Made by a program: the position numbers and the translations under genes. A DNA stretch of 64,000 nt. It comes from Candidatus Magasanikbacteria bacterium RIFOXYC2_FULL_42_28. GTDB taxonomy: Bacteria > Patescibacteriota > Patescibacteriia > Magasanikbacterales > GWA2-37-8. The notes beneath the pieces were generated by a model. It saw nothing but the letters and a program-made list of their open reading frames with translations. It searched no databases and was not told the DNA's origin. Below are positions 279-61,323 of this stretch, one piece after another; position 1 is the stretch's first letter, and every line of letters starts with the position of its first letter. The stretch lies in assembly GCA_001784435.1 (NCBI GenBank), contig MFQZ01000010.1, positions 18,917 through 82,916 on the forward strand, in the 5' to 3' direction.

Positions 279-388
279 AATGTCAAATTTCCAATTTCCA
301 ATGTCAAACCAATGTCAAAGCCAAAATGTCAAATTTGATATTGGGATTTTGGATTTGATTGGAAATTGGAAATTTGGATTTTGACATT
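279..388. repeat. palindromic MITE-like intergenic element, copy A (family P1, about 110 bp, imperfect about 30-bp terminal inverted repeats CAAATTTCCAATTTCCAATGTCAAA)
   Basis: Near-identical copies at 8098-8212, 25369-25478 and 48038-48150. Internal TTGACA/TGTCAA hexamers. Sits between the stop of the 391..1338 gene and the pyrD start. Confidence 0.85.
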
Positions 389-390
389 AT

Positions 391-6819: not shown

Positions 6820-7524
6820 TTAAGTTAAAATTTGTTTTAGAAGCGCGGTGGCCTCTGCTTTCATTATACCAATTTTTGCGTTTCCGTTCAACTGGTGGAT
6901 GGCTGTGCCACGCTTTATAAAAATTTTTTTAAGTTCAGTCCCAAAAAATTGGCGGTGAGATTTTTTTAAAAATGGCAGGTTTTCAAAAATTACGTTATCT
7001 TGTTTTTGCGCTCGGCCGGATAATCTTTGGGCCGAAGTGGTCGGATTGGTTTTTACTAAAATTAAATGGTCAGGGCGATGGGTTAGCGCCAAATTATTCC
7101 CGGGCAGAGCCGATATTTTTTTCATGGTGAAATTTTTGTGGGCTAGCGATTGGTAGGCGAGCGAGGTGGAGATACCGCGGTCTTGGATAATTACTCGGCC
7201 GTCTTTAAGCAAAGGAATAATAATTTTGGTGTAGAGAATTAAACGATCGAGCGCGTAGGCCTCGGCCACGGCTTCAACCGGGTAGGTCGTGCCGTTTTTG
7301 ATAAGTTCATCTCGAATTACCGCGCCTACGCCGGCGTAAGTTGGCTCGGCCGAAAAAATAAAATCATAGCCGTTAAGTTCGGATAATTTTGGGTATTCTC
7401 CGGTTTTTTTTAAATATTCTTTTAAATCAAAAATCGCGTTGCCTTGAGCAACTAAATATTTTTTCCAAGTTTCAATAACAGTGCTTTTGCCAGAGCCGTC
7501 GATGCCGTCAATCAATATTAACAT
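6820..7524 (-). CDS. tmk: thymidylate kinase
   Basis: P-loop LILIDGIDGSGKST, and DRGISTSLAYQS matching the dTMP kinase DRYxxSSLAYQG lid motif. Confidence 0.75.
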   Translation of the reverse strand: MLILIDGIDGSGKSTVIETWKKYLVAQGNAIFDLKEYLKKTGEYPKLSELNGYDFIFSAEPTYAGVGAVIRDELIKNGTTYPVEAVAEAYALDRLILYTKIIIPLLKDGRVIIQDRGISTSLAYQSLAHKNFTMKKISALPGNNLALTHRPDHLILVKTNPTTSAQRLSGRAQKQDNVIFENLPFLKKSHRQFFGTELKKIFIKRGTAIHQLNGNAKIGIMKAEATALLKQILT

Positions 7525-7530
7525 ATTGAA

Positions 7531-7628
7531 AATTCTAAGTTCTAAACTCTAAATTCTAATCGATTTGAATTTGTAATTTTAATATTTGGGTTTGTTTAGA
7601 TTTTAGTATTTAGAGTTTAGAGTTTCTC
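7531..7628. repeat. palindromic heptamer-based spacer (TTTAGAG/TTCTAAA family), copy 1
   Basis: aattctaagttctaaactctaaattctaat ... tttgtttagattttagtatttagagtttagagttt: two arms built of 7-mer repeats in inverted orientation. It extends a few nt into the folA 3-prime end. Confidence 0.7.
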
Positions 7629-8092
7629 GTATATATCACAAAATCAAAACCAGCGTGTGGTTCGCGGGCAATTTCTTTCCAAAGCGCGGGATTAATTATT
7701 GGAAAGAAGGTGTCGCCATCCGGAGATTGGTGGACGTGAGTAATATATAATGTATCCACGCGGTCAATTGTTTGTTTGTAAATACTCGCGCCACCACAGA
7801 TAAATACATCTTCGTTTTTTAATTGCGCGAAAGCGTCATCAAGCGAATTAAAGACGCGTACGCCGTCTGGCACTTGGTAATCTTTGTTTAAAGTCAGCAC
7901 CACTGTTTTTCGTCCTGGCAATGGCTTGCCTAAGTATCCTAAAATTGATTCATAAGTGGCTTGTCCCATTAAACAAGTTTTTCCCAAAGTGGTTTTTTTA
8001 AAAAACGCAAAATCTTCCGGAATATTCCACGGGATTTTGTTGTTTTTGCCAATGCAGTTATTGTCGGCGACGGCGGAAATGAGAGAGAACAT
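7610..8092 (-). CDS. folA: dihydrofolate reductase
   Basis: MFSLISAVADNNCIGKNNKIPWNIPEDFAFFKKTTLGKTCLMGQATYESI is the canonical DHFR N-terminus. ATG at 8090-8092. The ORF-track extension MEIGNLDFEIIN is translation of repeat copy B. Confidence 0.9.
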   Translation of the reverse strand: MFSLISAVADNNCIGKNNKIPWNIPEDFAFFKKTTLGKTCLMGQATYESILGYLGKPLPGRKTVVLTLNKDYQVPDGVRVFNSLDDAFAQLKNEDVFICGGASIYKQTIDRVDTLYITHVHQSPDGDTFFPIINPALWKEIAREPHAGFDFVIYTRNSKL

Positions 8093-8097
8093 GTTGA

Positions 8098-8212
8098 TAA
8101 TTTCAAAATCCAAATTTCCAATTTCCAATCAATGTCAAAGCCAAAATGTCAAATTTGATATTTGTAATTTGGATTTGATTTGACATTGGATATTGGAAAT
8201 TTGACATTTATT
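8098..8212. repeat. palindromic MITE-like element, copy B (family P1)
   Basis: aaatttccaatttccaatcaatgtcaaagccaaaatgtcaaatttgata...tttgacattggatattggaaatttgacattt. Sits between the thyA stop and the folA start. Confidence 0.85.
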
Positions 8213-8221
8213 TAGTAAATT

Positions 8222-9094
8222 TTAAACAGCAATTGGGAATGAGATTTTAGGATGGCTCTGATAACTCATCAATTCCGTATCCCCATATTGCCAATCAAAA
8301 ATATTCGTGAATTTTTCGGTTTTAATCTGGGGCAGGGGATAGGTATTTGGGTCGCGGGTAAGTTGTTCGCGTACGCCGTCAACATGATTTAAATATATAT
8401 GGGCATCTGCCAAAAAGCCGACCAATTTTCCTTCTTTTAAATTACATTCTTTGGCTAGTAAATGTAAAAGCAAAGCATAGCTTGAAATATTAAACGGCAA
8501 ACCAAGCATCGTGTCTACCGAGCGTTGATTCCAGAGTAAATTTAGTCGGCCGTTGATTACCGTCACTTGAAAACCATAATGGCAGGGTGGCAGAGCCATT
8601 TCACCAATTTGACAGGGGTTCCAAGCCATCACAATCATCCGACGATCGCTCGGATTGGTTTTAATAGTTTCAATTAATTTTTTTAATTGGTCAACACCGG
8701 TATCAGCATAATTGGAATCAAAATTTTCGTAAGGCGCGTTAAAATGTCGCCATTGAAAACCGTAAATCGGACCCAAATCGCGTTCGGCTGCCATTTTTTG
8801 TTTGGTGGCTTCGTCGTGGGCGTAAGGTACTTTTTTAGGTGAGCACCATTCATCCCAAATATGGCAGTTTTTGGCTTTGAGCCACTCTTTGTCCGTCAGG
8901 CCTTTGATAAAAAACTCCAATTCCGCGGCCATTACTTTAAATGGCATTTTTTTGGTTGTTAAAAGCGGATAACCGGTCGCCATGTCATGTTCAAAATACG
9001 CGCCGGCAATCGCGAGCGTGCCGGTGCCGGTGCGGTCGGTTTTGGTTTCGCCTTTTTCCAAAACGGTTTTGACGATGTTTAAATAGGATTGCAT
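8222..9094 (-). CDS. thyA: thymidylate synthase (ThyA type)
   Basis: MQSYLNIVKTVLEKGETKTDRTGTGT, HLLAKECN and the long-insert ThyA form. ATG at 9092-9094. The upstream extension translates the GTTCATAGCCAATAG repeat. Confidence 0.9.
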   Translation of the reverse strand: MQSYLNIVKTVLEKGETKTDRTGTGTLAIAGAYFEHDMATGYPLLTTKKMPFKVMAAELEFFIKGLTDKEWLKAKNCHIWDEWCSPKKVPYAHDEATKQKMAAERDLGPIYGFQWRHFNAPYENFDSNYADTGVDQLKKLIETIKTNPSDRRMIVMAWNPCQIGEMALPPCHYGFQVTVINGRLNLLWNQRSVDTMLGLPFNISSYALLLHLLAKECNLKEGKLVGFLADAHIYLNHVDGVREQLTRDPNTYPLPQIKTEKFTNIFDWQYGDTELMSYQSHPKISFPIAV

Positions 9095-9100
9095 ATTTTT

Positions 9101-9131
9101 TAGTTCATAGCCAATAGTTCTTAGCCAATAG
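9101..9131. repeat. GTTCATAGCCAATAG-family repeat
   Basis: tagttcatagccaatagttcttagccaatag, immediately upstream of the thyA start. Confidence 0.7.
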
Positions 9132-21098: not shown

Positions 21099-22307
21099 AT
21101 GACTTTAAGTGACAAGACCAGTGTAAAGCCGGATTTTAAAACATTACTGCAAGACAACCCGATTAATTTTCCCAAAGTGGGGGATTTGGTTAAGGGTAAG
21201 GTATTGTCTGTGGACAAAGGCGAAATTCACGTTGATATTGAAGGATTGACCACCGGTGTGGTGCGGGGCGCGGAGTTGTTCGCGGAATCGCGCGAGCATG
21301 CTAATTTGAAAGTAGGCGACGAAGTGGAAGCGACGGTTACGGAAATGGAAAATGAAAATGGAGAATTGGAATTGTCGTTCCGCATCGCCGGTTTTCAACG
21401 CGCTTGGGATGCTGTTAAGAAATGGATGAAAGACGGCTTGACCATTAAAGCCAAAATTACCGGCGCTAACAAGGGAGGGCTCATGATGCAAGTAGAGGCC
21501 CTGGCCGGTTTTATGCCGGTATCGCAATTGTCTCCGGAAAATTACCCGCGCGTGGCCGGTGGGGACAAAAATCGTATTTTTGAAAAATTACAAGAATTGA
21601 TTGGCACTGATATGGAGGTTAAAGTAATTGACGCTGATGAAAAAGATGAAAAATTAATCGTGTCCGCGCGCGCGGTGTGGGAAGACAGCCAAAAAGCGGT
21701 ATTGGATTCTTACAAAGTGGGCGATACGGTGGACGGTGAAGTAAGCGCCCTGACATCATTTGGCGCGTTCTTGAAATTTGGCGAGGGCTTAGAAGGGTTG
21801 GTTCATATTTCCGAAATTGCTTGGCAGAGAATTGAACACCCGCGCGATTTGTTAAAAGTAGGAGACAGAGTCAAGGCCAAAATTATTCAATTGGATAAAT
21901 CCAAAATTTATTTGTCGTTGAAACGGTTAGTAGATGATCCGTGGAAACAGGTGGCGGAGAAATATAAAGTGGGCGACAAGGTAAAAGGAAAAATTATTAA
22001 AATTGAAGCGTTCGGTCTCATGGTCGCGCTTGATCAGAATATTCATGGTTTGGCGCATGTGTCGGAATTGTCCGACGCGCCTTTGGCCAATGTCGCTGAC
22101 AAATTTAAAATCAACCAAGAAGTGGAATTTGAAATCGTCAATATTGAGGCGATTGAACACCGCTTGGGTTTGCGCGTGGCCGGAGTAAAAGGAAAAGCGC
22201 CGAAAGCGCCAAAGGCGAAAAAGGGTGAAAAGAGCGAAAAAGCCGAAGAGACGCCCGAGGCCAAAGCGGAAACGAAATCGGAGTTAGAAGAAAAAAAGGC
22301 CGAGTAA
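21099..22307 (+). CDS. rpsA: 30S ribosomal protein S1 (four S1 domains, Lys/Glu-rich tail)
   Basis: Repeated S1-domain pattern GDLVKGKVLSVDKGEIHVDI, GDTVDGEVSALTSFGAFLKF..GLVHISEIAW and GDKVKGKIIKIEAFGLMVAL..HGLAHVSEL. Confidence 0.85.
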   Translation: MTLSDKTSVKPDFKTLLQDNPINFPKVGDLVKGKVLSVDKGEIHVDIEGLTTGVVRGAELFAESREHANLKVGDEVEATVTEMENENGELELSFRIAGFQRAWDAVKKWMKDGLTIKAKITGANKGGLMMQVEALAGFMPVSQLSPENYPRVAGGDKNRIFEKLQELIGTDMEVKVIDADEKDEKLIVSARAVWEDSQKAVLDSYKVGDTVDGEVSALTSFGAFLKFGEGLEGLVHISEIAWQRIEHPRDLLKVGDRVKAKIIQLDKSKIYLSLKRLVDDPWKQVAEKYKVGDKVKGKIIKIEAFGLMVALDQNIHGLAHVSELSDAPLANVADKFKINQEVEFEIVNIEAIEHRLGLRVAGVKGKAPKAPKAKKGEKSEKAEETPEAKAETKSELEEKKAE

Positions 22308-22315
22308 TTGCGTTT

Positions 22316-22350
22316 GTCATTCCGACCGCAGTGGAGGAATCCCTTAACGT
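22316..22350. repeat. GC-rich hairpin repeat (family H1: TGTCAT-YCC-GA...GA-GGR-ATCCC), intergenic copy
   Basis: tgtcattccgaccgcagtggaggaatccc. Near-identical copy with compensatory stem changes inside pyrC (2064-2096, opposite strand). Related copies at 29309-29341 and 60499-60586. Confidence 0.7.
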
Positions 22351-22367
22351 TAAAATACACTTCAAAT

Positions 22368-24342: not shown

Positions 24343-24395
24343 AAAAATGTGGTATAATATATCTATCTGGTGTTAAACAACCAATTATTAATTAT

Positions 24396-25361
24396 ATGCG
24401 CGAACCAAATTATAGTGAGGCTTTTTCCCATTCTTGGCAAATGGTGAAAGAGCACAAAATTTTGTGGGTGTTTGGTTTATTGTCGGTGTGTTTGGGGCAG
24501 TGGGGTTTGGCGAATTTTTTGGGCGGGTTGAATATGGTCGGGTTAAATCAATATGGTGCCTCTTGGCATAATTTTTCTTCACTATTTTTACTTTTGCAAA
24601 TTGCTGGCGAAGGTGTGATTCCGTTTTTGTTAGTTTTGTGGTTATTCGTCGTGGGCGCGGCGCTTTTTATTTTGATGATATTCGTGGCCGTGGTCGCGCG
24701 GGGCGCTTTAATTGCCGCGGTCGGGCATTGGTTTGCCAAAGATGGCAAGGTATCGCTGGCGCTCGTTTGGCGTCATGGCGTGAAAAATTTTTGGAAATTA
24801 TTAGTGTTGGTTATTTTAACCAGATTGTTTGAGGTTGCGCTATTGATTTCGGCGCTCGGGGTTTTTGCTCTTTGTGGCAATTCCACCGCCGGGTTTATCA
24901 GTCAAGCCTTTTTTGGCGCTTTGGCTTTGGCGGTCGGGATTGCTTTGGAGGCGGTGATGATTTTTGCCTCTGGGTATGTGGTGATTGATGGCGAGTCCGT
25001 GTCTAATTCTATTGCTCGCGCTTGGCGTTTATTTACTCGTCATATTTTGATTACTTTAGAATTGGGGGTATTATTGACGGTAGCAAGTTTACTGGTGGCT
25101 GTGGTAGTTATATTAGCCGGTTCTTTGGTGCTTATTCCCGCCATGATTGTCTGGTTGTTCGCCATTTTGACCGGCTTAAACGGGTTGTTTAGTTTTGGTT
25201 TTATTTTGGCCTGGGTTTTATTTGTGATGGTAATCGGTTTGGCCGCGGCGATTTTCAACGCTTTTAACACGAGCGTTTGGATGTATTTGTTTGTTAAGAT
25301 GCATCGCGAGAGTTATGTGGGGTGGGTGTTAAATACAGTGAAAAAGTTATTTAGTAAATAA
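24396..25361 (+). CDS. polytopic membrane protein, unknown function
   Basis: 321 aa, eight or more hydrophobic segments. Extended -10 promoter tgtggtataat at about 24345-24358. Confidence 0.5.
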   Translation: MREPNYSEAFSHSWQMVKEHKILWVFGLLSVCLGQWGLANFLGGLNMVGLNQYGASWHNFSSLFLLLQIAGEGVIPFLLVLWLFVVGAALFILMIFVAVVARGALIAAVGHWFAKDGKVSLALVWRHGVKNFWKLLVLVILTRLFEVALLISALGVFALCGNSTAGFISQAFFGALALAVGIALEAVMIFASGYVVIDGESVSNSIARAWRLFTRHILITLELGVLLTVASLLVAVVVILAGSLVLIPAMIVWLFAILTGLNGLFSFGFILAWVLFVMVIGLAAAIFNAFNTSVWMYLFVKMHRESYVGWVLNTVKKLFSK

Positions 25362-25368
25362 ACAAGTT

Positions 25369-25478
25369 AATGTCAAATTTCCAATTTCCAATGTCAAATC
25401 AAATCCAAAGCCAAAATATCAAATTTGACATTTGACATTGTCTTGGAAATTGGGAATTTGGATTTTGAAATTATCATT
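25369..25478. repeat. palindromic MITE-like element, copy C (family P1), ending exactly at the pilB ATG
   Basis: aatgtcaaatttccaatttccaatgtcaaatcaaatccaaagccaaaatatcaaatttgacatttgacattgtcttggaaattgggaatttggattttgaaattatcatt. Confidence 0.85.
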
Positions 25479-27197
25479 ATGTCTTTTCCGTCAATCAATG
25501 ATTTAACAAAAAAAGATGACGATCAAAACGCGCCCCAAACCGGCGCGGATTGGGATTCCACCAAGTCCAAATTTGATCGCAAGATGGGTGATATTCGGAT
25601 TAAAGAATTAGAGCAAGAAGCGTCTGCGTTTGCCACTGCGTCCGGTTTGCAGTATCTGGATTTGACCGGTTTCCCGGTGTCGCCCGAGGCCTTACGCGCG
25701 GTGCCGGAAGCAATCGCCCGTGAAAAAAATCTTGTTTGTTTTTATTATTCTCCGAGCGAATTGCGCGTCGGGGTACTTCTGCCTTTGGAGGAAAATGACG
25801 ATTTTATTTATCAATTGGGCGAACGTCATCACGCGCCGGTTATTACCTATCTGATTTCCGAGCATAGTTTAGAAAAAGTTTTAAAATTATACGCGACTTT
25901 ACCGATTGTCAAACCAATTACCAAAGATGTTAATATCACGGATGAGGAATTAAATAAATTTGGTTCTGATATTAAAGATTTGGCCGGTTTAGAAAAAAAA
26001 TTTCTTAATATTTCCATTACCGATATTTTGTCTTTAATGATTTCCGCGGCGATTAAATTAAACGCGTCGGATATTCACGTGGAAGCCGAAGAAAAAGGCA
26101 TTGCCGTGCGTTATCGCGTGGATGGGGTGTTACACGAAGTGGCCAATTTACCACATTCGGAATGGGAAAAATTTATTTCGCGCATTAAATTGTTGTCGGC
26201 GTTAAAAATCAATGTTAATAATCGTCCGCAAGACGGTCGGGTTACCATTAAACTTGATTCCGGCAGTTTGGATTTGCGCGTGTCCACGTTGCCAACCACT
26301 TACGGCGAATCAGTCGTGATGCGTATTTTGCACAGTGGCACCAAGGGGGTGATGTTTGATGAATTAGGTATTCGCGGAGCGGCGTATGTGCGTTTGAAGC
26401 GCGAAATTGAACGTCCGAACGGTATGATTGTCACCACCGGTCCGACCGGTTCCGGTAAAACTACTACTTTATACGCGATTTTGCGCACTTTGAATAAACC
26501 GGGGGTAAAAATTATTACGGTAGAAGATCCGGTGGAAATTAAAATGCAAGGTGTGGTGCAAAGTCAGGTAGATATTGCTCGTGATTATACTTTTGCCAAG
26601 GCCTTGCGCAGTATTTTGCGTCAGGACCCGGATATTTGTATGGTCGGTGAAATCCGCGATTTAGAATCAGCCGAAATTGCCATCCAGTCCGCTTTGACCG
26701 GTCATTTGCTTTTATCCACTATCCACACCAACAGCGCTTCGGGCGCGATTCCGCGTTTTATGTCAATGGGTGTGAAACCGTTTTTACTTGCGCCGGCTTT
26801 AAACGCGGTGATGGGTCAGCGGTTGGTGCGCCGGATTTGCGAAAAATGTATTGAAGAACAGGAGTTGGACAGCGAAATGTTAGAGCGAGTCGGGAAAATT
26901 ATCGCGTCCTTGCCGGCGGAAGAAAAAGCGCGCGTTACGGAAAAAGGATTAACATTTTATCATGGCAAAGGATGCCCGGAATGTAGTGGGCTGGGCTACA
27001 AAGGCCGAATCGGTATTTATGAAATTTTTGTAATGACCAAAGAAATTGAAAGTTTGATATTGGGCGGTGGCGCTTCGGAATACGAAATCCAAGAGTTGGC
27101 CGCGAAAGATGGGATGTTGACGATGGCGCAAGATGGAATTTTAAAAGCTTTAGATAAAATGACAAGTGTGGAAGAAGTTTTCCGCGTGTCAGAATAA
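25479..27197 (+). CDS. pilB: type II/IV secretion system ATPase (PilB/GspE family)
   Basis: T2SSE N-terminal domain, Walker A GPTGSGKTTTLYA, Asp and His boxes, C-terminal C4 zinc motif CEKC...CPEC. Start MSFPSIND (ATG at 25479). The upstream ORF-track extension is repeat-encoded. Confidence 0.85.
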   Translation: MSFPSINDLTKKDDDQNAPQTGADWDSTKSKFDRKMGDIRIKELEQEASAFATASGLQYLDLTGFPVSPEALRAVPEAIAREKNLVCFYYSPSELRVGVLLPLEENDDFIYQLGERHHAPVITYLISEHSLEKVLKLYATLPIVKPITKDVNITDEELNKFGSDIKDLAGLEKKFLNISITDILSLMISAAIKLNASDIHVEAEEKGIAVRYRVDGVLHEVANLPHSEWEKFISRIKLLSALKINVNNRPQDGRVTIKLDSGSLDLRVSTLPTTYGESVVMRILHSGTKGVMFDELGIRGAAYVRLKREIERPNGMIVTTGPTGSGKTTTLYAILRTLNKPGVKIITVEDPVEIKMQGVVQSQVDIARDYTFAKALRSILRQDPDICMVGEIRDLESAEIAIQSALTGHLLLSTIHTNSASGAIPRFMSMGVKPFLLAPALNAVMGQRLVRRICEKCIEEQELDSEMLERVGKIIASLPAEEKARVTEKGLTFYHGKGCPECSGLGYKGRIGIYEIFVMTKEIESLILGGGASEYEIQELAAKDGMLTMAQDGILKALDKMTSVEEVFRVSE

Positions 27198-27209: not shown

Positions 27210-28352
27210 ATGATAGTACGTCACAGTGAGACCCGCACGCATTTTGAACCTTCGGTAAAATTTTATCGCACGATTGCTTTGTCGTTTTTATTTATTACGA
27301 TTGTTTTGCTTGGACTTATCATTTTTATTACTTCCAAAAAAGCGTCCATTGTTATTCTGGCTAAAGAAGACGCTAAAACAGCTAATTTGAGTATTAATGT
27401 TGGCGCGGGTGGCACTGTTGGCGCGATTAAAGGCGTGGTAACCACTTCGATTTTTACCGGAAGCGAAAAATTTTATCCGACGACATTTGATTCTTCTGAA
27501 TCAGTCGCGACCGGAGAGGTGATTATTTACAACAAAAGTAATGTCGACCAGGCGCTTGTCAAAACCACTCGATTTTTAACGCCGGAGCAAGTAATGTTTC
27601 GTTTAAGTGAGCGGGTTAATGTTCCAGCCGGCGGGCAGGTAATTGCCCCGGTGTATGCCGACCGGGCGGGCGCGAGCAGTGAAATTGGACCAGCGCCGTT
27701 TATTATCCCCGGGTTATCGGAAGACAGGCAGAAATTTATTTACGCCGAAAGCAAATCGGCTATGACCGGTGGCGTAAAAAAGAACGGAGTGTTGACGGCA
27801 ACTGATTTAGCCACGGCCGAAAAATCGTATCAAGAAAAAGTTAAACAAAAGTTTGTGAGCCAGGCGGTGGCGCCGGCCGAAGGGATGAGTTTGGTAGTGG
27901 TTGTACTTTCTACCAACGCTACTGCCGACCACAAAGTTGGTGATACTATCGCCGAATTTGTTTTAAGCGGTGAAAGTCGCGTGGTGGCGGTATGGTATGA
28001 AACAAGCGCGCTCAAAGAAATGGTGGCGCGTGAAATTGGGAGTCAGGTGGATTTGGAATTGGAAAAAGTTGTGACGGTTTCGGGCGAGCCCCAAATAACA
28101 TTGTCCGCCCAAGATGTTGACGCCGGCACCGCGCAATTGTCCGTATCGCAAGAAGCGCGCGTTACGCTTGATTCGGACGGTTCCAAAGTCGCGCCTCGTC
28201 AATTTTTAGATAAAACCAAAGAAGAAATTGAGCGGTATTTGTTGGGCTTAGGCCATGTTTCGGCCGTGGATGTTAAATTTTCCCCCAGTTGGATGCGTAA
28301 ATCGCCGAGTGTGCCGGATAATATTAAGGTGGTGGTGAAGCAGGTGAAGTGA
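27210..28352 (+). CDS. membrane-anchored protein of unknown function, adjacent to pilB
   Basis: Single N-terminal TM IALSFLFITIVLLGLIIFITS, then a roughly 330-aa extracytoplasmic region with no recognised motif. Confidence 0.5.
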   Translation: MIVRHSETRTHFEPSVKFYRTIALSFLFITIVLLGLIIFITSKKASIVILAKEDAKTANLSINVGAGGTVGAIKGVVTTSIFTGSEKFYPTTFDSSESVATGEVIIYNKSNVDQALVKTTRFLTPEQVMFRLSERVNVPAGGQVIAPVYADRAGASSEIGPAPFIIPGLSEDRQKFIYAESKSAMTGGVKKNGVLTATDLATAEKSYQEKVKQKFVSQAVAPAEGMSLVVVVLSTNATADHKVGDTIAEFVLSGESRVVAVWYETSALKEMVAREIGSQVDLELEKVVTVSGEPQITLSAQDVDAGTAQLSVSQEARVTLDSDGSKVAPRQFLDKTKEEIERYLLGLGHVSAVDVKFSPSWMRKSPSVPDNIKVVVKQVK

Positions 28353-28432
28353 TAGTTCATAGCCAATAGGGTGGGCGAGCGATTCGTTGTCTCCCCCTGC
28401 CCGAGGGGGAGAATAAGAGGGGGTGGGAGCGG
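28353..28432. repeat. composite repeat: GTTCATAGCCAATAG unit plus GC-rich hairpin family H2 (CTCCCCCTGCCCGAGGGGGAG-AATAAGAGGGGGTGGGAGCGG)
   Basis: The H2 unit recurs in-frame in gatB at 5527-5572. Confidence 0.7.
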
Positions 28433-29286: not shown

Positions 29287-29308
29287 AAATTAATTTATTA
29301 ACCGACCG

Positions 29309-29341
29309 GATGGAGATTCCTCACATTCGTTCGGAATGACA
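29309..29341. repeat. GC-rich hairpin repeat (family H1), intergenic copy upstream of thrS
   Basis: ggatggagattcctcacattcgttcggaatgaca. Identical core at 60551-60586 inside folC. Confidence 0.7.
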
Positions 29342-29350
29342 TAAAAAAAT

Positions 29351-31096
29351 ATGGACAAAGAACAACTCGAACACCTGCGCCACTCCTGCGCGCACCTACT
29401 CGCCGCGGCGGTTTTGGAATTGTATCCAAACGCTAAACGCACCATTGGTCCGGCGATTGAAAACGGTTTTTATTATGATTTTGATTTCGGGGTGGAGAAA
29501 ATTTCGGAAACAGATTTGAAAAAAATAGAAGAAAAAATGCGCCAAATTGCTCCCACTTGGGAAAAATTTGAACGTCAAGAAGTTAGCGCTAGCGGAGCGA
29601 AAGCTGTTTTTAAAGACAATGAATATAAAATAGAATTAATCGAAGAATTTAGCGTTGACGGGCAAGCGCTTACTTTGTATAAATCCGGCGCTTATGTGGA
29701 TTTGTGCCGCGGTGGGCATAGCGAGAACCCGAGCAAAGAATTAAAACATTTTAAATTATTGTCGGTGGCGGGCGCGTATTGGCGCGGGAGTGAAAAAAAT
29801 AAAATGTTGACGCGTATTTACGGCACTTGTTTTCCGACTAAAAATGAATTGTATGAGCACTTACATCAATTGGAAGAAGCCAAAAAGCGCGATCATCGTA
29901 AAATCGGCGCCGAGCAGGAATTATTTTGTTTTGATGATCGCGTGGGTAAGGGCCAAGTTTTGTGGTTGCCAAACGGCACGATAATTCGTAATGAAGTGGA
30001 AAAATTAACTATAGAAAAAGAATCTGAAGGCGACTATCTGCGCGTGCGTACGCCGCACCTCGCCAAAGAAGAATTATTTTTGACTTCCGGGCATTTGCCG
30101 TATTACAAAGACAGCATGTATCCGCCCATGGTAATGGACGATGGCAACTACTATCTGAAAGCGATGAATTGCCCGCATCACCACACCATTTATAATTTTA
30201 AACCGCACAGTTATCGCGAGTTGCCGCTCCGTTTGGTAGAATATGGTGAATGTTTTCGCAATGAATTGTCCGGCACTTTGGCTGGGTTACTCCGCGTGCG
30301 TGCGATGGCGATGAATGACGCGCATATTTATTGCCGTAAAGAGCAAATTAAAGACGAATTTAAAAGCGTGATGGAACTGGTGATGGAATATTTCCGAATT
30401 TTCAAATTGGAAAATTATTGGTTTCGTCTTTCCAAATGGAGTCCGGATCATTTGGATAAATATATCAACGAACCGGAAAATTGGCAATTTAGCGAGGGGG
30501 TGATTCGGGAGGTGTTACAAGAAATGAAAGTAAAATTTGTGGAAGCCGCGGACGAGGCGGCGTTTTACGGACCGAAGGTAGACGTGATGTTTAAGTCGGT
30601 TATCGGACGCGAAGAAACCATGTCCACTATTCAATTGGATTTCGCGGCGAAAAAGCGTTTTGATTTAAAATACACCGATTCTGATGGCAAAGAAAATAAC
30701 GAGGTGTTTGTGATTCACCGTGCGCCACTGTCAACCCACGAACGGTTTATGGCGTTTTTAATTGAGCATTTTGCCGGTGTTTGGCCGGTCTGGCTCTCAC
30801 CCGTGCAAGTACTCTTCGCGCCGGTGGCGAGCGCGCACGTGGAAGGCGCGAAAAAATTAGCCGGTGAATTTAAAGTTGCCGGCATTCGCGTAGAGACCGA
30901 TGACGCGGACGAAACTGTTGGCAACAAAGTGCGCAAAGCCGTTGGCCGGAAAATTCCGTATATTGTCGTAGTGGGGGATAAGGAACTCGCGGGTGGCGAA
31001 TTAATGGTGCGCGTGCGCGGAGAAGAAAAACCGGCGAAATTTGTGAAAGAAGAATTTTTGGCAAAGGTGGTGGGGGAGATTAAAGCGCGGACGTAA
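29351..31096 (+). CDS. thrS: threonyl-tRNA synthetase (no N-terminal TGS domain; editing-type N2 domain present)
   Basis: HSCAHLLAAAV editing-domain motif, class II core, and HRAPLSTHERFMAFLIEHFAGVWPVWLSP. Confidence 0.9.
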   Translation: MDKEQLEHLRHSCAHLLAAAVLELYPNAKRTIGPAIENGFYYDFDFGVEKISETDLKKIEEKMRQIAPTWEKFERQEVSASGAKAVFKDNEYKIELIEEFSVDGQALTLYKSGAYVDLCRGGHSENPSKELKHFKLLSVAGAYWRGSEKNKMLTRIYGTCFPTKNELYEHLHQLEEAKKRDHRKIGAEQELFCFDDRVGKGQVLWLPNGTIIRNEVEKLTIEKESEGDYLRVRTPHLAKEELFLTSGHLPYYKDSMYPPMVMDDGNYYLKAMNCPHHHTIYNFKPHSYRELPLRLVEYGECFRNELSGTLAGLLRVRAMAMNDAHIYCRKEQIKDEFKSVMELVMEYFRIFKLENYWFRLSKWSPDHLDKYINEPENWQFSEGVIREVLQEMKVKFVEAADEAAFYGPKVDVMFKSVIGREETMSTIQLDFAAKKRFDLKYTDSDGKENNEVFVIHRAPLSTHERFMAFLIEHFAGVWPVWLSPVQVLFAPVASAHVEGAKKLAGEFKVAGIRVETDDADETVGNKVRKAVGRKIPYIVVVGDKELAGGELMVRVRGEEKPAKFVKEEFLAKVVGEIKART

Positions 31097-40672: not shown

Positions 40673-41065
40673 ATGAGCCAGGAAATTGTCGCAAAATTAA
40701 GATATTTTCGCCAAGGGCCGCGTAAAATGCGCCTCGTGGTGGATATGATTCGAGGACGCAATGTCGCGCGCGCTTTGCAAATTTTGGAATTAACCAACAA
40801 AAAATCCGCTCGCGCCATTTTAAAGTTGCTCCAATCGGCCGTGGCCAACGCTAAACATAATTTTAGTTTGAACGAAGACAATTTGCGTATTAGTAAAATT
40901 ACGGTTGATGGTGGTCCGGTTTTAAAACGGTGGATGCCAAAAGCGCACGGTCGCGCCACTCCGATTCGCGAACGCACGAGTCATATCAATTTATATTTAT
41001 CCGAGTTTGTTAAGAAAGAAAAGATAAATAAAAAGAAAGTGAAAGAAATAAAAGTTAAAAAATAA
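40673..41065 (+). CDS. rplV: 50S ribosomal protein L22
   Basis: AKLRYFRQGPRKMRLVVDMIRGRNVARALQILELTNKKSA. Confidence 0.9.
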   Translation: MSQEIVAKLRYFRQGPRKMRLVVDMIRGRNVARALQILELTNKKSARAILKLLQSAVANAKHNFSLNEDNLRISKITVDGGPVLKRWMPKAHGRATPIRERTSHINLYLSEFVKKEKINKKKVKEIKVKK

Positions 41066-41102
41066 TTATTTAGTATTTAGTGTTTAGAATTTAGTGTTTA
41101 AA
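41066..41102. repeat. heptamer-based spacer repeat (TTTAGTG/TTTAGAA family), copy 2
   Basis: atttagtatttagtgtttagaatttagtgtttaaaaa, between rplV and rpsC. Confidence 0.65.
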
Positions 41103-41106
41103 AAGT

Positions 41107-41829
41107 ATGGGTCACAAAGTACATCCGAAAATTCATCGCACTCCCTTGGTAAATTCTTGGGATTCAAAATGGTTTGGACGCAAAGAACAGTTGCCCGGTC
41201 TTTTGAAGCAGGAAGTACAAATTCGCGAGTATTTGGATGTTAAATTAAAAGACGCCGGTATTGATTCTGTTTCCGTGGAACGCACTCCGAAAGAAGTGAC
41301 CATTACCATTCTCGCGGCCAAACCGGGTGTGGTCATCGGTCGTTCTGGACAGGGCTTGGAAGTTTTAAAAAAAGATATTGAAAAGAAAATTTTACAATTT
41401 AAACATCGCGTTAAATTAAATATTTTACCGGTTAATCAACCCGCGCTTTCGGCTCGGATTGTCGGCGCCGGTATTGTTTCGGAAATTGAACGTCGTATGC
41501 CTTTTCGGCGCGTGATGAAACAGGCGATTGAAAAAGTAATGGCCGCCGGAGCGCAAGGCGTAAAAATTAAAATGTCCGGTCGTTTGAACGGCGTGGAAAT
41601 TGCCCGCCAAGAAGTGCTCGGCGCCGGCAAAATGTCTTTGATTACTTTTCGCAGTAATGTTGATTATGCGATTGTGGAAGCGCAGACGCTTTACGGTAAA
41701 ATTGGTGTTAAAGTTTGGGTTTATCGCGGTGAAGTATTTAGTCGTTTAGATAAATTTGGTCAAGCGACCGAGAAGGCCGCCGCTAAGCCGGCCGGTCGTA
41801 AATCCGACAATGACTTGTTCCGCGATTAA
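41107..41829 (+). CDS. rpsC: 30S ribosomal protein S3
   Basis: [23 protein letters not shown]...KH domain...[12 protein letters not shown]. Confidence 0.95.
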
Positions 41830-48007: not shown

Positions 48008-48037
48008 ACCAAGGCCGGCTAAGTAGCTGGCTTTTTT
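48008..48037 (+). terminator. intrinsic terminator after secY
   Basis: accaaggccggctaagtagctggc followed by ttttttaat. Confidence 0.65.
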
Positions 48038-48150
48038 AATGTCAAATTTCCAATTTCCAATGTCAAATCAAATCCAAAGCTCAAATTACAAATTTGGCAT
48101 TTTAATTTTGACATTGATTTGACATTGGAAATTTAGATTTTGAAATTATT
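48038..48150. repeat. palindromic MITE-like element, copy D (family P1)
   Basis: aatgtcaaatttccaatttccaatgtcaaatcaaatccaaagctcaaattacaaatttggcattttaattttgacattgatttgacattggaaatttagattttgaaattatt. Confidence 0.85.
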
Positions 48151-48163
48151 GGACGATATTGCC

Positions 48164-48189
48164 AAACGGCTAGTATTTATGCTATAATT
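48164..48189 (+). promoter_or_regulatory. candidate adk promoter (TTGCCA ... TATAAT, 19-nt spacer)
   Basis: ttgccaaacggctagtatttatgctataat. Confidence 0.4.
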
Positions 48190-48885: not shown

Positions 48886-48925
48886 AATTTGTTTAGGATT
48901 TAGTGTTTAGAATTTAGAGTTTATT
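48886..48925. repeat. heptamer-based spacer repeat, copy 3
   Basis: aatttgtttaggatttagtgtttagaatttagagtttatt, between adk and map. Confidence 0.65.
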
Positions 48926-48931
48926 AATCGT

Positions 48932-49745: not shown

Positions 49746-50129
49746 ATGAATATTCTCGCTCTTGATTATGGACAAAAAAATATCGGTTTGGCGTGGTGTG
49801 ATACCGGCATTGGCGCGCCATTGCCGTTTGGGGTTATTAAGGGTGGAGATTTTGCCGAATTAGTAAAAGTTATTAAAACCGAAAATATCGATAAAGTAAT
49901 TATTGGTTTGCCTTTGGGAATGGACGGTAAAGAAAAAGCCAATACGGCGCGCGTGCGTGAATTTGGCGAGCAATTAAAAAAACAAATTACCGCGTCGGTA
50001 GAATTTTTTGATGAGCGGTTTTCTTCGCAACAAGCGGACCGCAGTGAAGGAGGAGTATCAAGAGACGAGAAGTCGGCGATGATTATTTTAGAAAGCTATT
50101 TAGCCAGTGTAAAAAATTCCAAACTCTAA
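49746..50129 (+). CDS. ruvX: YqgF/RuvX Holliday-junction-resolvase-like putative pre-16S rRNA nuclease
   Basis: MNILALDYGQKNIGLAWCD...KVIIGLPLGMDGKE. RNase H-like fold motifs. ATG at 49746. Confidence 0.75.
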   Translation: MNILALDYGQKNIGLAWCDTGIGAPLPFGVIKGGDFAELVKVIKTENIDKVIIGLPLGMDGKEKANTARVREFGEQLKKQITASVEFFDERFSSQQADRSEGGVSRDEKSAMIILESYLASVKNSKL

Positions 50130-50242
50130 ATACTAAACTCTAAACAAATCCAAATGTTTTAAACTCAAAGTTTTGTTCATTTGAATTTAAAGTTTTGAAC
50201 TTGTTTAGAATTTAGGGTTTAGTATTTAGTGTTTTATGTTGT
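50121..50242. repeat. long palindromic heptamer-array spacer (copy 4): CTAAATACTAAACTCTAAACAAATCCAAA ... TTTGAACTTGTTTAGAATTTAGGGTTTAGTATTTAG
   Basis: The two arms are reverse complements built from TTTAGAG/TTTAGTA/TTTAGAA 7-mers. Lies between ruvX and recO. Confidence 0.7.
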
Positions 50243-52184: not shown

Positions 52185-53201
52185 TTATTTTATATTTAAA
52201 ATCGCCACCTCTGGCATTAAGCCAAAGCGAATAGGCGCGGCGCTTTCGCCAGCTCCGACCGTGGTAAAAATCGGAATGTTGTTGTAGTATTTTAGTCCGC
52301 GATAAAAATTTCGGTGCATTTTGATTTCCGCGCTCACTACCGGCCCCAGGCCCGGCAAATGAATTTGTCCGCCATGCGTGTGGCCGGTCAAAACTAAGTC
52401 CGGTTTTTTAAGTTCCGTTGGCCAGTGTAAGACGCCGTCGGGGTTATGAGTTAAGAAAATCAAGGGCGTGGTTTTATCCCAATTTTTTAATTCGTCAAAA
52501 TTAATTTGTCCGCCCCATAAATCATCCAGTCCAAAAATACAAATATCGCGATTCGGTAATTTGAGACGTTCCAATTTATTTTTTAAAAGCGGAATTTTTA
52601 ATTTGGCCATTTGGTCGGCTAATACCGGCGCGCGGTTTTCAAACATCATTACGCCTGGCCGGCCGGCACCATATTCGTGGTTGCCCATTACATAATATAT
52701 TGGGAAGCGACCGACCAGTTGCCCGAATGGCGCCATAAAGGCGCTTTCGTTTTCGTCCGTGCCTTCATTATCAATCAAGTCGCCCCCTAACAGTACCAAA
52801 TCCGGGTTCTCGGCAGTAATTTTGTCCACAATTTTTTGCGACCATTTGGTTTTTTTAAGCGACATGCCGAGTTGCAAATCAGCCACAAAAGCAATTTTTA
52901 ATCCGGCGAGCGCGCTTATTTTTATTTTTTTGCGGTGGATAAATAAAAAGTGCGGGGTGGCAAAGGCGACAATTAGTAATATCAGCCCCAGTATCTCCAA
53001 ATATCCGGAAATCATATTAGCCAATAAAAAAATGGCGCCCACAATAAACAGGGTGATAACATGGTAAATCCGCATACGGTAATGACCCAGCCGAACGGTC
53101 GGATGTTTGCGCTCGCGGTATAAAAATATAAACGCGATAATAGCGGTGACAAAGTAGGTATAAGTTAAAATTTGCGCGATATTCATACTAAAATAGGGCA
53201 T
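52185..53201 (-). CDS. membrane-anchored metallophosphoesterase (calcineurin-like)
   Basis: Three N-terminal TM helices. GDLIDNEG, GNHEYG and GHTHGGQI metal-binding motifs. Confidence 0.8.
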   Translation of the reverse strand: MPYFSMNIAQILTYTYFVTAIIAFIFLYRERKHPTVRLGHYRMRIYHVITLFIVGAIFLLANMISGYLEILGLILLIVAFATPHFLFIHRKKIKISALAGLKIAFVADLQLGMSLKKTKWSQKIVDKITAENPDLVLLGGDLIDNEGTDENESAFMAPFGQLVGRFPIYYVMGNHEYGAGRPGVMMFENRAPVLADQMAKLKIPLLKNKLERLKLPNRDICIFGLDDLWGGQINFDELKNWDKTTPLIFLTHNPDGVLHWPTELKKPDLVLTGHTHGGQIHLPGLGPVVSAEIKMHRNFYRGLKYYNNIPIFTTVGAGESAAPIRFGLMPEVAILNIK

Positions 53202-59904: not shown

Positions 59905-61323
59905 TCAATTTTGGGCGGAAATTGGTCGCAATTGTCCGCTAAAGTAGATACTGCCGGTGACTAGCAAAATGTCGCCTGTGTTGAGGGTTTTGTGGATGGT
60001 TTTGTAGGCCTGGATGGGGTTTGGAGATGTTTTGATTTTGGTTTTTGGACAGTCAATTTTGAATAGTTTTGTAAGTTCATTTGGGCTGATTGCCGGTCGC
60101 GCGCCTGGGGCGGTCGTTTGGGAGCAGGTGATGGATATTGGTTTTAGAGTTGATAATTGTTTGACCATTTGTTTGATATTTTTGTCAGCGGAAAAGCCTA
60201 CTAATAGATGCAATGGTCTGTTTTGGCGAAGTTGTTTTAAAGTCGCGACCGTGGTTTTCATTTTATCCGGATTATGCGCGCCGTCTAGAATTATTAACGG
60301 ATTTTTGTGGACAATTTCAAAACGCAGTGGTTGTTTGGCATTTGCCAATCCTTTTTTAATCGCGCTGTCTTTTATTTTTAACGCACGTGCAATTTTAATA
60401 CATAAAATTGCATTGATTATTTGATGTTCGCCCGGGGCGGTTAAAGTGTAGGTTTGATTTTTGTATTTAAAGGTGGTGCTGTATTCGTCAACACCATTTG
60501 TCATCCCGAGCGAGGCTCGCGCCGACGAGGGATCTCCATTAGCGACCGATTGGGATGGAGATTCCTCACATTCGTTCGGAATGACAGGTGAGTGTCGTAA
60601 AATTTGGTAACGCGGTTTATTTATCGTAAATAATTTTGTATTGGTTAGTTTACATTCTTTTTTAATTATTTTTAAGATTTTCGGATCGGTTTCGGCCGTG
60701 AATACTTTGCATCCGGTTTTAATAATGCCAGATTTTTCATAAGCGATTTCTGATTTGTTGTTGCCGATAATTCCAACATGATCCAGTCCGATATTTGTAA
60801 TGACCGCGATATCTTTGTGGGGAATAATATTGCTGGAATCATACCGTCCACCCGCGCCGACCTCGGTTACTAGCCACTCCACTTTTTTATCAGCAAAATA
60901 TTTTAATCCCAGCGCTTCGGTAAATTCAAATAATGATAAATTATCGTAGGGTGTTTTTTTAGTGTAGATTTTATATTTATTTTTTAACCAATTTACCAAA
61001 AACGCAAATTCAGCACGCGAAATTTCGCGGTTGTTAATTTTCCAACGCTCGGTAATGTAGGTCGGGTGTGGGGAAGTGGATAGGCCAACGCGTTTACCCG
61101 AAGCAACTAAAATTGATTGTAAATAAGTCGCGACCGAGCCCTTGCCACTTGTGCCAGTGATATGAATATAATGGGGGATTTTACGTTCGGGATTGCCGAT
61201 TAAATCCAAAAAAAATTGCAGACGTTTTAAATACCAGTCGCAATGATTAGAGTCGGTCAAATATTCTTTGCGTGGGAGTTTGGCAAAATCCAGTAAGAAT
61301 TGTTCGGCTTCTTTGAAGTTCAT
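59905..61323 (-). CDS. folC: folylpolyglutamate synthase / dihydrofolate synthase (Mur ligase family), carrying an in-frame roughly 30-aa repeat-derived insertion
   Basis: ITGTSGKGSVATYL P-loop, VGLSTSPH, EVGAGGRYDSSNII. Insertion RHSPVIPNECEESPSQSVANGDPSSARASLGMTNG is encoded by hairpin repeats. Confidence 0.8.
   Translation of the reverse strand: MNFKEAEQFLLDFAKLPRKEYLTDSNHCDWYLKRLQFFLDLIGNPERKIPHYIHITGTSGKGSVATYLQSILVASGKRVGLSTSPHPTYITERWKINNREISRAEFAFLVNWLKNKYKIYTKKTPYDNLSLFEFTEALGLKYFADKKVEWLVTEVGAGGRYDSSNIIPHKDIAVITNIGLDHVGIIGNNKSEIAYEKSGIIKTGCKVFTAETDPKILKIIKKECKLTNTKLFTINKPRYQILRHSPVIPNECEESPSQSVANGDPSSARASLGMTNGVDEYSTTFKYKNQTYTLTAPGEHQIINAILCIKIARALKIKDSAIKKGLANAKQPLRFEIVHKNPLIILDGAHNPDKMKTTVATLKQLRQNRPLHLLVGFSADKNIKQMVKQLSTLKPISITCSQTTAPGARPAISPNELTKLFKIDCPKTKIKTSPNPIQAYKTIHKTLNTGDILLVTGSIYFSGQLRPISAQN
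60499..60586. repeat. tandem inverted pair of family-H1 GC-rich hairpin repeats located inside the folC reading frame
   Basis: tgtcatcccgagcgaggctcgcgccgacgagggatctcc ... ggagattcctcacattcgttcggaatgaca. Confidence 0.7.

Follow-up and report, generated by a model that had tools for sequence, protein, structure and literature searches.

Four copies of an imperfect palindrome of 106-113 nucleotides (nt) lie in the 64,000-nt stretch of DNA analysed here (the window; contig MFQZ01000010.1, positions 18,917 to 82,916), which comes from a Rifle-aquifer metagenome-assembled genome (MAG), Candidatus Magasanikbacteria bacterium RIFOXYC2_FULL_42_28. The element, one copy of which stands directly ahead of the pilus ATPase gene pilB, is a dispersed repeat resembling miniature inverted-repeat transposable elements (MITEs) and the ERIC sequences, with an unusual lattice of seven-nucleotide units (heptamers) and a preference for operon junctions. 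It has been gained as a unit at new sites, the orthologous sites in relatives being empty. With slightly better than even confidence, we take it to be a non-coding, non-autonomous dispersed repeat that belongs to a Patescibacteria-wide superfamily of imperfect palindromes built on a 7-nt lattice.

Copies in the window

A first-pass annotation of the window, made from its letters alone, had reported four copies of a MITE-like palindrome, and all four are found where it placed them. An 18-mer from the arm of the element, with up to 3 mismatches allowed, matches the window 18 times against 0.64 expected, a repeat search of the window puts exactly these four sites into one group, and an nhmmer profile of the copies recovers the same four sites and nothing further in the window. 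The ends of the copies, which we call family A, were set by the conserved termini TAATG...ATTA, and the strand is that on which all four align.

A1 (family A), 279..389, minus strand: pyrB stop codon at 391-393, 1 nt away; pyrD ATG at 270-268, 8 nt away.
A2 (family A), 8098..8210, minus strand: thyA stop codon at 8222-8224, 11 nt away; folA ATG at 8092-8090, 5 nt (TCAAC) away.
A3 (family A, the copy on which the first-pass annotation centred), 25368..25473, plus strand: upstream stop codon at 25359-25361, 6 nt away; pilB ATG at 25479, 5 nt (TCATT) away.
A4 (family A), 48037..48148, plus strand: between a terminator-like hairpin of secY and a promoter-like site of adk.

Pairwise identity among these copies is 75-84% in global alignment and 67-83% in ungapped comparison, lower than the figure of more than 85% first given. 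Independent ENA, JGI and Logan assemblies hold the same sequence, so the copies are not an assembly artefact, and the flanking proteins are identical to the A3J93_ proteins of the source MAG.

Dispersal of the family and empty orthologous junctions

At least six family-A copies are present on three contigs of the same MAG, the four of the window and one at each of two further loci, L145 and L225, whose locus tags (A3J93_05275 and A3J93_04340) match those of the window (A3J93_02905 and A3J93_03155). A4 and the L145 copy are 94% identical, and their loci are unrelated; the L145 copy lies between convergent gene ends, while at L225 a WecA/MraY-like upstream open reading frame (ORF) runs 49 nt into the element. 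Beyond the window, genome and metagenome collections were scanned with arm words and the copy counts are lower bounds. Profile searches of the loci fetched in this way, from groundwater and Patescibacteria contigs, yielded dozens of full-length relatives of 100-135 nt among the matches listed, in records labelled Magasanikbacteria, Parcubacteria, Portnoybacteria and "Patescibacteria group". These relatives have conserved ends (TAATGTCAAAT...ATTTGA[CA]ATTA) and a conserved centre (CAAATCAAATCCAAA...TTGACATTGATTTGACATTGG). At the right end, members of the family differ in sequence (GAAATTA, GACATTA, GTCATT). A 17-mer scan of IMG/VR gave 11 matches, each of them a lone chance match within phage coding sequence and none a complete element, so in that collection the family is not carried by phages; BLASTN searches of plasmid and phage collections gave no match, a result to which low-complexity filtering may have contributed.

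Relatives found through FolA are syntenic in this region, and comparison of their gene junctions reveals insertion polymorphism. The thyA-folA junction is filled in the window, in L240 (FolA 90% identical) and in L241 (86%), and is empty in L242, L243 and L256 (FolA 78-80%), where it reads ...ATAGCTATA TAA att ATG... or ...ATTGCTATC TAA att ATG...; in a further contig, P0005, the spacer is 4 nt. At the folA-tmk junction L240 holds a near-consensus family-A copy and the window holds a member of a sister family (family B, described below), the two genes overlap in L241, and L242 has a spacer of 5 nt. The junction of gene X, an unannotated gene, with pilB is a 9-nt spacer with no element in L227 (PilB 70% identical). 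A spacer of a few nt is thus usual in the clade, and the element is a derived gain at these junctions. A search through Adk homologues for close empty secY-adk sites was uninformative, the nearest relative being only 70% identical. The suggestion of a dispersed MITE-like palindromic family is thus upheld, by copies on two further contigs of the MAG, by copies in other genomes and by empty orthologous junctions in relatives, and the copies are not a local duplication confined to this contig.

The two different elements at folA-tmk, family B in the window (7529-7626) and family A in L240 (L240:1087-1209), have the same rare variant of the centre, CAAACCCAAAT, in place of the CAAATCCAAAT of other copies. 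This could mean either that two insertions took place independently or that one ancestral element had its arms replaced.

A palindrome on a 7-nt lattice

Every copy is an imperfect palindrome over its full length. The inverted repeat is not limited to the termini of about 30 bp described at first but spans the whole element; in A4, arms of 56 nt are 77% complementary. The plan of family A consists of a 5' arm, (AAT[GT]TC[AC])n, a centre, CAAATCAAATCCAAA, and a 3' arm that is the mirror of the 5' arm. The 5' arm reads AATGTCA AATTTCC AATTTCC AATGTCA AATCAAATCCAAAG, and the 3' arm mirrors it as TTTGACA TTGGAAA and so on. In the superfamily as a whole the layout is that of about four AA-W-N-T-C-N units, CAAAYCAAAYCCAAAT, a variable loop and a mirrored 3' arm. 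The 7-nt period is evident from the autocorrelation, which is 0.55-0.61 at lag 7 and 0.45-0.48 at lag 14 versus about 0.1 at lags 3-4, and from an alignment of 32 members from different contigs, in which each unit keeps its AAT and its C with little or no variation and the remaining unit positions vary. Besides the periodic arms, the copies have in common a non-periodic centre (CAAATCAAATCCAAAG...ATATCAAATTTGAC), the order of their units and their ends, over about 110 nt.

Stop codons occur in all three sense frames of every copy, with a TAA at the first base and the TGAs confined to the 3' arm, and the final 15-20 nt of the element (GGAUUUUGAAAUUAUCA) are A/U-rich and hold no Shine-Dalgarno sequence. 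A mini-ORF that begins in the terminal TAATG is open in every copy, as follows from the composition of the arms, but we reject it as a translational-coupling device because the distance between its stop codon and the downstream ATG is inconsistent, ranging from 13 to about 48 nt.

As RNA, the copies are predicted to form hairpins of -31 to -36.5 kcal/mol (z from -3.4 to -5.5) on both strands, and in the predicted folds of A2 and A3 the last 11-20 nt ahead of the AUG are mostly unpaired. No strand asymmetry in folding was found among the 30 members whose strands differed, the sense strand folding better in 14 and the antisense strand in 16 (Wilcoxon p = 0.28), nor was there an excess of G-U pairs on the transcribed strand, and RNAalifold returned neither consensus nor covarying pairing for the 32 members. 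The lack of asymmetry and of consensus pairing indicates that the palindromy is that of two inverted lattice arrays with free register and not that of a covarying RNA helix. The transcript would form a hairpin all the same, and a role for it in processing or stability is possible but unsupported.

Position and orientation at operon junctions

The copies of the window lie among the following features.

Gene X, 24396-25361, plus strand: unannotated, 321 aa, upstream of A3 and pilB.
pilB, 25479..27197, plus strand: T2SSE ATPase gene directly downstream of A3.
folA, 7610..8092, minus strand: dihydrofolate reductase (DHFR) gene, with A2 upstream and the family-B copy B1 downstream.
Terminator-like hairpin with T run after secY, 48011..48034, plus strand: A4 begins 2 nt beyond it.
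Promoter-like site of adk, 48159..48188, plus strand: TTGCCA-18-TG-c-TATAAT, an 11/12 match with an extended -10, outside the element and 10 nt after A4.

Pfam identities of the neighbours show the gene pairs around the copies to be co-directional at all four sites (pyrB-pyrD, thyA-folA, X-pilB, secY-adk), three of them (pyrB-pyrD, thyA-folA and secY-adk) being recognisable operon pairs, and the strand of each of the four copies is the strand of its flanking genes. The first-pass annotation had the real start codons right: the FolA translation equals the deposited 160-aa protein, the N-terminus of PilB is conserved in L227, and the Pfam match of PyrD begins at residue 1. It was equally right that three copies end within 0-8 nt of an ATG (8 nt for pyrD and 5 nt each for folA and pilB), that they create spurious TTG-initiated ORF extensions (7610..8128 for folA, 25425..27197 for pilB), and that the fourth copy sits between the secY terminator, the hairpin listed above, and the adk promoter with its 11/12 match.

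To judge how far this placement departs from chance we used a rough gene list for the spacers of the window and crude ORF-based calls for the wider loci. Spacers of at most 20 nt hold 4.2% of the intergenic bases in the window, and yet three of the four family-A copies and the two family-B copies are in spacers whose residual length is at most 14 nt; for family A alone, the probability of such a preference under uniform insertion into intergenic DNA is about 3e-4. The element is near start codons, then, because it was inserted into stop-start spacers of 3-14 nt. Among 38 non-redundant full-length members, 31 lie between co-directional genes, 4 between convergent and 2 between divergent genes, and one is flanked by an ORF on a single side; 17 of the 31 co-directional members have their next in-frame start codon at most 11 nt away.

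In the close subfamily (A1-A4, L225 and L240b) all six independent loci have the element in one orientation relative to transcription, with a chance expectation of about 0.03. The GC skew has a single sign throughout the window, yet A1 and A2 point the opposite way to A3 and A4, so that orientation follows transcription and not replication. The constant skew, with copies that flip with gene direction, rules out the replication-linked orientation of IS200/IS605-type elements.

The promoter question

It had been argued that the element must itself supply a promoter and initiation signals to the genes that it abuts, in effect as a MITE with outward promoters (TTGACA plus an A/T-rich -10), and that the pyrD, folA and pilB mRNAs would be essentially leaderless. 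We regard this as very unlikely. The TTGACA hexamers on which the argument was built do occur, 2-4 times per copy on the sense strand, where they arise as the reverse complement of the TGTCAAA unit; the -10-like segments fare worse, since TAnAAT and TGnTAnnnT are absent from all four copies. Extended -10 boxes resembling TGGTATAAT number 39 in the window against 19.9 expected and stand ahead of several transcription units, and none of the 39 is inside an element. The sole consensus match in A3 that faces the downstream gene near its ATG scores 9/12, and its -10 ends 1 nt before the ATG, so that transcription would begin inside pilB; A1 has one weak match about 108 nt upstream, A2 has none, and the number of consensus matches in the elements does not exceed that in shuffles. 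Moreover, the variable right end of the element (as given above) leaves no conserved -10 there across the family, the genes concerned form operon pairs, and the 2-5-nt spacers of relatives are too short for a promoter. Motif content and geometry do not support a sigma-70 promoter within the element, although a weak internal one may exist. In favour of the argument, apart from the hexamers and the single matches in A3 and A1, is that leaderless-type geometry seems to occur elsewhere in this genome: the gene at 52185-53201 (minus strand) has a TATAAT box 5-6 nt ahead of its ATG, which suggests a leaderless mRNA.

The upstream sequence offers a simpler source of transcription for pilB.

Extended -10 box TGGTATAAT, 24350..24358, plus strand: closely follows a terminator-like hairpin and is likely to be the promoter of the X-[A3]-pilB unit.

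With such a box of its own for gene X after a terminator-like hairpin, read-through from upstream would suffice for pilB, and read-through from the co-directional upstream gene is the economical reading for the other junctions too, which leaves the leaderless transcripts without support. Much the same holds for translation. Almost no gene of the window has a Shine-Dalgarno motif, upstream regions being A/T-rich, and in a genome nearly devoid of Shine-Dalgarno sites no special initiation signal need be supplied by the element. A multi-domain ribosomal protein S1 is encoded at 21099-22307.

A sister family and other heptamer repeats

Besides family A, the window holds two palindromes of a second family and two plain direct arrays.

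B1, family-B palindrome (AAACTCT / AAATACT ... TAGAGTT), 7529..7626, minus strand: folA stop codon at 7610-7612 in its first unit; tmk ATG at 7524, 4 nt beyond.
Second family-B palindrome, 50118..50235, plus strand: ruvX stop codon at 50127-50129 in its first unit; recO ATG at 50236 directly after.
Direct TTTAG[TA]G heptamer array, 41052..41106, plus strand: fills the rplV-rpsC spacer up to the rpsC ATG at 41107.
Direct TTTAGNG heptamer array, 48889..48927, plus strand: in the adk-map spacer, ending 4 nt ahead of the map ATG at 48932.

Family B can be aligned with family A in register from end to end, with 52 invariant columns and the common centre CAAAYCCAAAT. In both of its copies the upstream ORF (folA or ruvX) ends in an AAA-CTC-TAA encoded by the element, and the next ATG (tmk or recO) follows after 0-4 nt. 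The direct TTTAG[TAG]G arrays at 41052-41106 and 48889-48927 place a TAG in all three frames.

Two further classes of small repeats occur in the window. A REP-like 34-mer, GGATGGAGATTCCTCACATTCGTTCGGAATGACA, is present in two copies that are 100% identical, at 29308-29341 and 60553-60586; the thrS ATG at 29351 follows the former after 9 nt (29342-29350), and the latter lies inside a long ORF. A related unit, TGTCAT[TC]CCGACCGCAGTGGAGG[GA]ATCCCTTA, is found at 2041-2092 and 22315-22366, and the loop of the family-A copy at L198 contains a similar unit. At 1343-1433, 9092-9131 and 28344-28368, in intergenic spacers or close to them, there is a third small repeat (TAGTTCATAGCCAA), with a period of 14 nt; inverted copies of it flank the start region of pyrB.

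Arrays of related heptamers reach well beyond the Patescibacteria. In a genome contig collection the 18-mer AAATTTCCAATTTCCAAT has matches in more than 117 contigs, among the matches listed (loci L004-L120, e.g. L112, L028, L054, L088, L029 and L034), with phylum labels that include Nitrospirae, Planctomycetota, Deltaproteobacteria, Bacteroidales and a Thermoplasmata archaeon. Most of these contigs hold tandem heptamer arrays, and some hold inverted 7- or 14-nt arrays of other unit types; contigs of Desulfobacterales/SEEP-SRB have the recurrent context ...CATGAAGGCC-(AAATTTCC)n-...GTTCCGTGAACGCTTAC. In several Patescibacteria (AATTTCC)n arrays also lie in frame inside aminoacyl-tRNA synthetase genes, namely those for leucyl-tRNA synthetase (LeuRS; L038:2988, L056:6332, L078:825, L095:5979) and isoleucyl-tRNA synthetase (IleRS; L013:6414, L035:6998), where they encode KFPISNFQFPI just ahead of the conserved motif (E/N)VFTTRPDT in LeuRS and of WTTTPWTLP in IleRS. 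The DNA 18-mer of these synthetase arrays is identical across genomes.

Weighing the explanations

If the element is a non-autonomous dispersed repeat, as we favour, it would be copied and inserted by some mechanism and passively transcribed within polycistronic mRNA, and it would be tolerated at junctions because it brings stop codons (the TAA at its first base and the TGA in its 3' arm) and because its last 15-20 nt (GGAUUUUGAAAUUAUCA) would provide the A/U-rich, Shine-Dalgarno-free lead-in to the AUG that is usual in this genome. Its hairpin or heptamer arrays may in addition have been co-opted, for RNase III processing or for the binding of S1 or cold-shock proteins (Csp). Several observations weigh against this reading. 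No consistent direct repeat was found outside TAAT...ATTA in about 20 copies, although a TA duplication could hide in the ends, the flanking DNA is rich in A/T, and the nearest genomes with an empty site have only about 70-76% DNA identity. The cognate transposase with matching termini that the first-pass annotation envisaged did not turn up: there is none among the scanned ORFs of the window, and no pair of family termini lies 0.4-4 kb apart, as in an autonomous partner, in about 1.7 Mb of fetched loci. The copies are modest in number, with no fewer than six in this MAG. Distant members with clear orientation split 4:4, so the orientation bias is not a property of the whole family. Co-transcription of the element with the gene pairs is deduced from gene order only. 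The strict heptamer lattice and the in-register alignment of families A and B are atypical of MITEs derived from transposons and might indicate a function, with a host protein that recognises the lattice, instead of selfish spread, and the junction preference likewise could reflect selection for function rather than targeting.

These last points lead to an alternative that we hold to be a real possibility, if well short of even: that the element is a host-selected cis-element whose heptamer arrays would be read in the mRNA by a protein of the oligonucleotide-binding (OB) fold, S1 or a cold-shock protein, with about one domain per 6-7 nt. The stop codons, an insulator hairpin and the A/U-rich leader would together act as "operon punctuation" and set downstream initiation or coupling without Shine-Dalgarno pairing. 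Such a role would fit the strong excess at stop-start junctions, with a start codon at most 11 nt away in 17 of 31 cases, the orientation with transcription in the close subfamily, the invariant AA..TC lattice common to families A and B, the plain direct arrays right ahead of the rpsC and map ATGs in conserved operons, and a genome that lacks Shine-Dalgarno sites and encodes a multi-domain S1; the TAACTGA repeats are a published analogue (PMC4679880). However, close relatives have the same gene pairs with spacers of 2-5 nt and no element, the copies at L145 (convergent ends) and A4 (between terminator and promoter) serve no start codon, and neither the even split of sense and antisense folding (14 vs 16, p = 0.28) nor the RNAalifold result for 32 members indicates a conserved RNA structure. 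A hairpin for mRNA processing or stability, in the manner of ERIC or Correia (NEMIS) elements, seems to us unlikely; here an A/U-rich duplex of about 50 bp would be cut by RNase III, separating the cistrons and leaving a short unstructured leader. The long predicted hairpins (to -36.5 kcal/mol and z of -5.5), their place between cistrons and the mostly unpaired nucleotides before the AUG in the folds of A2 and A3 are what it would predict. There are also precedents, in that RNase III acts on transcribed Correia repeats in Neisseria and the orientation of ERIC alters mRNA decay in Yersinia. The absence of strand asymmetry, of a G-U excess on the transcribed strand and of a covarying consensus structure nevertheless counts against it, and any inverted pair of lattice arrays would form the same hairpin.

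It is also conceivable that no mobility was involved and that the palindromes grew in place by slipped-strand expansion of heptamers, alike merely through the use of the same units, as in the cyanobacterial STRR heptamers, which are related to the TAACTGA-type repeats. The 7-nt periodicity, the shuffling of units between copies (e.g. A1 vs A3) and the occurrence of simple AATTTCC arrays in many phyla would all agree with such growth, but copies that correspond in unit order, in the non-periodic centre (CAAATCAAATCCAAAG...ATATCAAATTTGAC) and in their ends over about 110 nt, the 94% identity of A4 and L145 at unrelated loci, and the near-consensus copy gained by L240 at folA-tmk make it highly improbable. 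A broader proposal, which we offer tentatively and think rather unlikely, would unite these observations in a large class of "heptamer-lattice" DNA, of which we found no description. Made up of discrete palindromes and arrays with an invariant AA..TC / GA..TT register of 7 nt, it would home to stop-start junctions of operons and sometimes lie in frame inside genes, spreading without a recognisable transposase within and between Patescibacteria, with related forms in other uncultured phyla. Such a class would imply either a new insertion mechanism, for instance one coupled to boundaries of transcription or translation or templated by the hairpin, or a conserved OB-fold protein that reads the lattice, with the elements as operon punctuation in place of Shine-Dalgarno coupling.

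Comparison with known repeats

The element is small and non-coding and has terminal inverted repeats (106-113 nt, ends TAATGTCAAAT and ATTTGA[CA]ATTA, stops in all frames), and it is dispersed and polymorphic in its insertions (at least six copies on three contigs, junctions filled or empty among relatives), as is characteristic of MITEs. It resembles the MITE, ERIC, Correia/NEMIS, RUP and Nezha elements in its length of roughly 100-150 nt, its lack of coding capacity and its terminal inverted repeats or whole-length imperfect palindrome, as well as in its multiple dispersed copies, their presence or absence between related genomes and their location in transcribed operon spacers. It differs from them in that neither a target-site duplication nor a cognate insertion sequence was found, in its strict 7-nt lattice, which is common to sister families and to contigs of many lineages, and in its marked preference for stop-start junctions of a few nt. 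The MIRUs of mycobacteria, which are direct tandem repeats of 40-100 bp with small coupling ORFs, are likewise known to occupy intercistronic operon spacers and to overlap neighbouring stop and start codons, but they are not palindromes on a heptamer lattice. Repeats of the REP/BIME and REPIN type are similar in being palindromic and extragenic, often between co-transcribed genes, and in lacking target-site duplications. REPs, though, measure 20-40 nt, have a GTAG or CGTC head and are mobilised by REP-associated tyrosine transposases (RAYTs), whereas the present element is about 110 nt long and of another architecture, with no GTAG or CGTC in any copy and no RAYT seen in the window, and we therefore reject that assignment.

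The direct heptamer repeats (TAACTGA)n found in intergenic regions of Beggiatoaceae, Cyanobacteria and Bacteroidetes (MacGregor 2015, PMC4679880) offer a different comparison. These repeats stop about 1 nt short of start codons without a Shine-Dalgarno sequence, including those of ribosomal-protein operons, S1, Csp or CsrA have been proposed to bind them, and their phylogenetic spread is patchy, with a transfer mechanism that is unexplained (PMC4679880). Common to both are 7-nt units, arrays that end a few nt before start codons without Shine-Dalgarno sequences, an occurrence in ribosomal-protein operons, forward arrays that stop all three frames, some overlap with the end of the upstream ORF, and a patchy phylogenetic distribution with no known means of transfer. 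In the palindromes described here the 3' arm is indeed a heptamer array 5-8 nt from an ATG with no Shine-Dalgarno sequence, but its units (AATGTCA / AATTTCC) are unlike TAACTGA, it is half of an inverted pair of arrays around a conserved centre that is copied whole as a discrete 110-nt unit, and A4 and L145 serve no start. The plain direct arrays of the window, at 41052-41106 and 48889-48927, are the closer match to the TAACTGA class.

Three other assignments were rejected. TIGR arrays consist of paired units of box C, a 9-nt spacer and box D, with variable spacers and an adjacent tas (Nop-domain) gene (bioRxiv 10.64898/2026.09.09.750476); the box C-N9-box D pattern occurs once in one copy of the element and never paired, the interiors of the copies are conserved, and no Nop-domain gene is among the scanned neighbours. 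Neither the RYYYAAC nor the GTTRRRY core of an integron attC site is present in any copy, and the neighbours are core housekeeping operon genes. A search of the whole window against Rfam at the gathering score returned one tRNA only, and at E values up to 10 the locus itself matched nothing other than generic miRNA-precursor hairpins far below threshold.

Implications

In the searchable literature on MITEs and intergenic repeats of the candidate phyla radiation we found no interspersed repeat family described for Patescibacteria, and no description in this group of a discrete palindromic unit, copied as a block on a heptamer lattice, that homes to stop-start junctions. The genomes of Patescibacteria are tiny and tightly packed, and the repeated gain of such a unit precisely in the stop-to-start gaps of essential operon genes (thymidylate synthase-DHFR, aspartate carbamoyltransferase-dihydroorotate dehydrogenase, X-pilus ATPase) means that they tolerate, or use, 110-nt hairpin-forming inserts at places where most bacteria rely on translational coupling. 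In practice, the repeats lead automated annotation to extend ORFs spuriously at the N-terminus and to add C-terminal tails, metagenome assemblies are likely to break at them, and they provide strain-level markers for populations of Magasanikbacteria. Should the element be selfish, it would be a mobile one that has an unusual target and lacks a known enzyme; should it be functional, it would bear on how translation starts in genomes that do without Shine-Dalgarno pairing.

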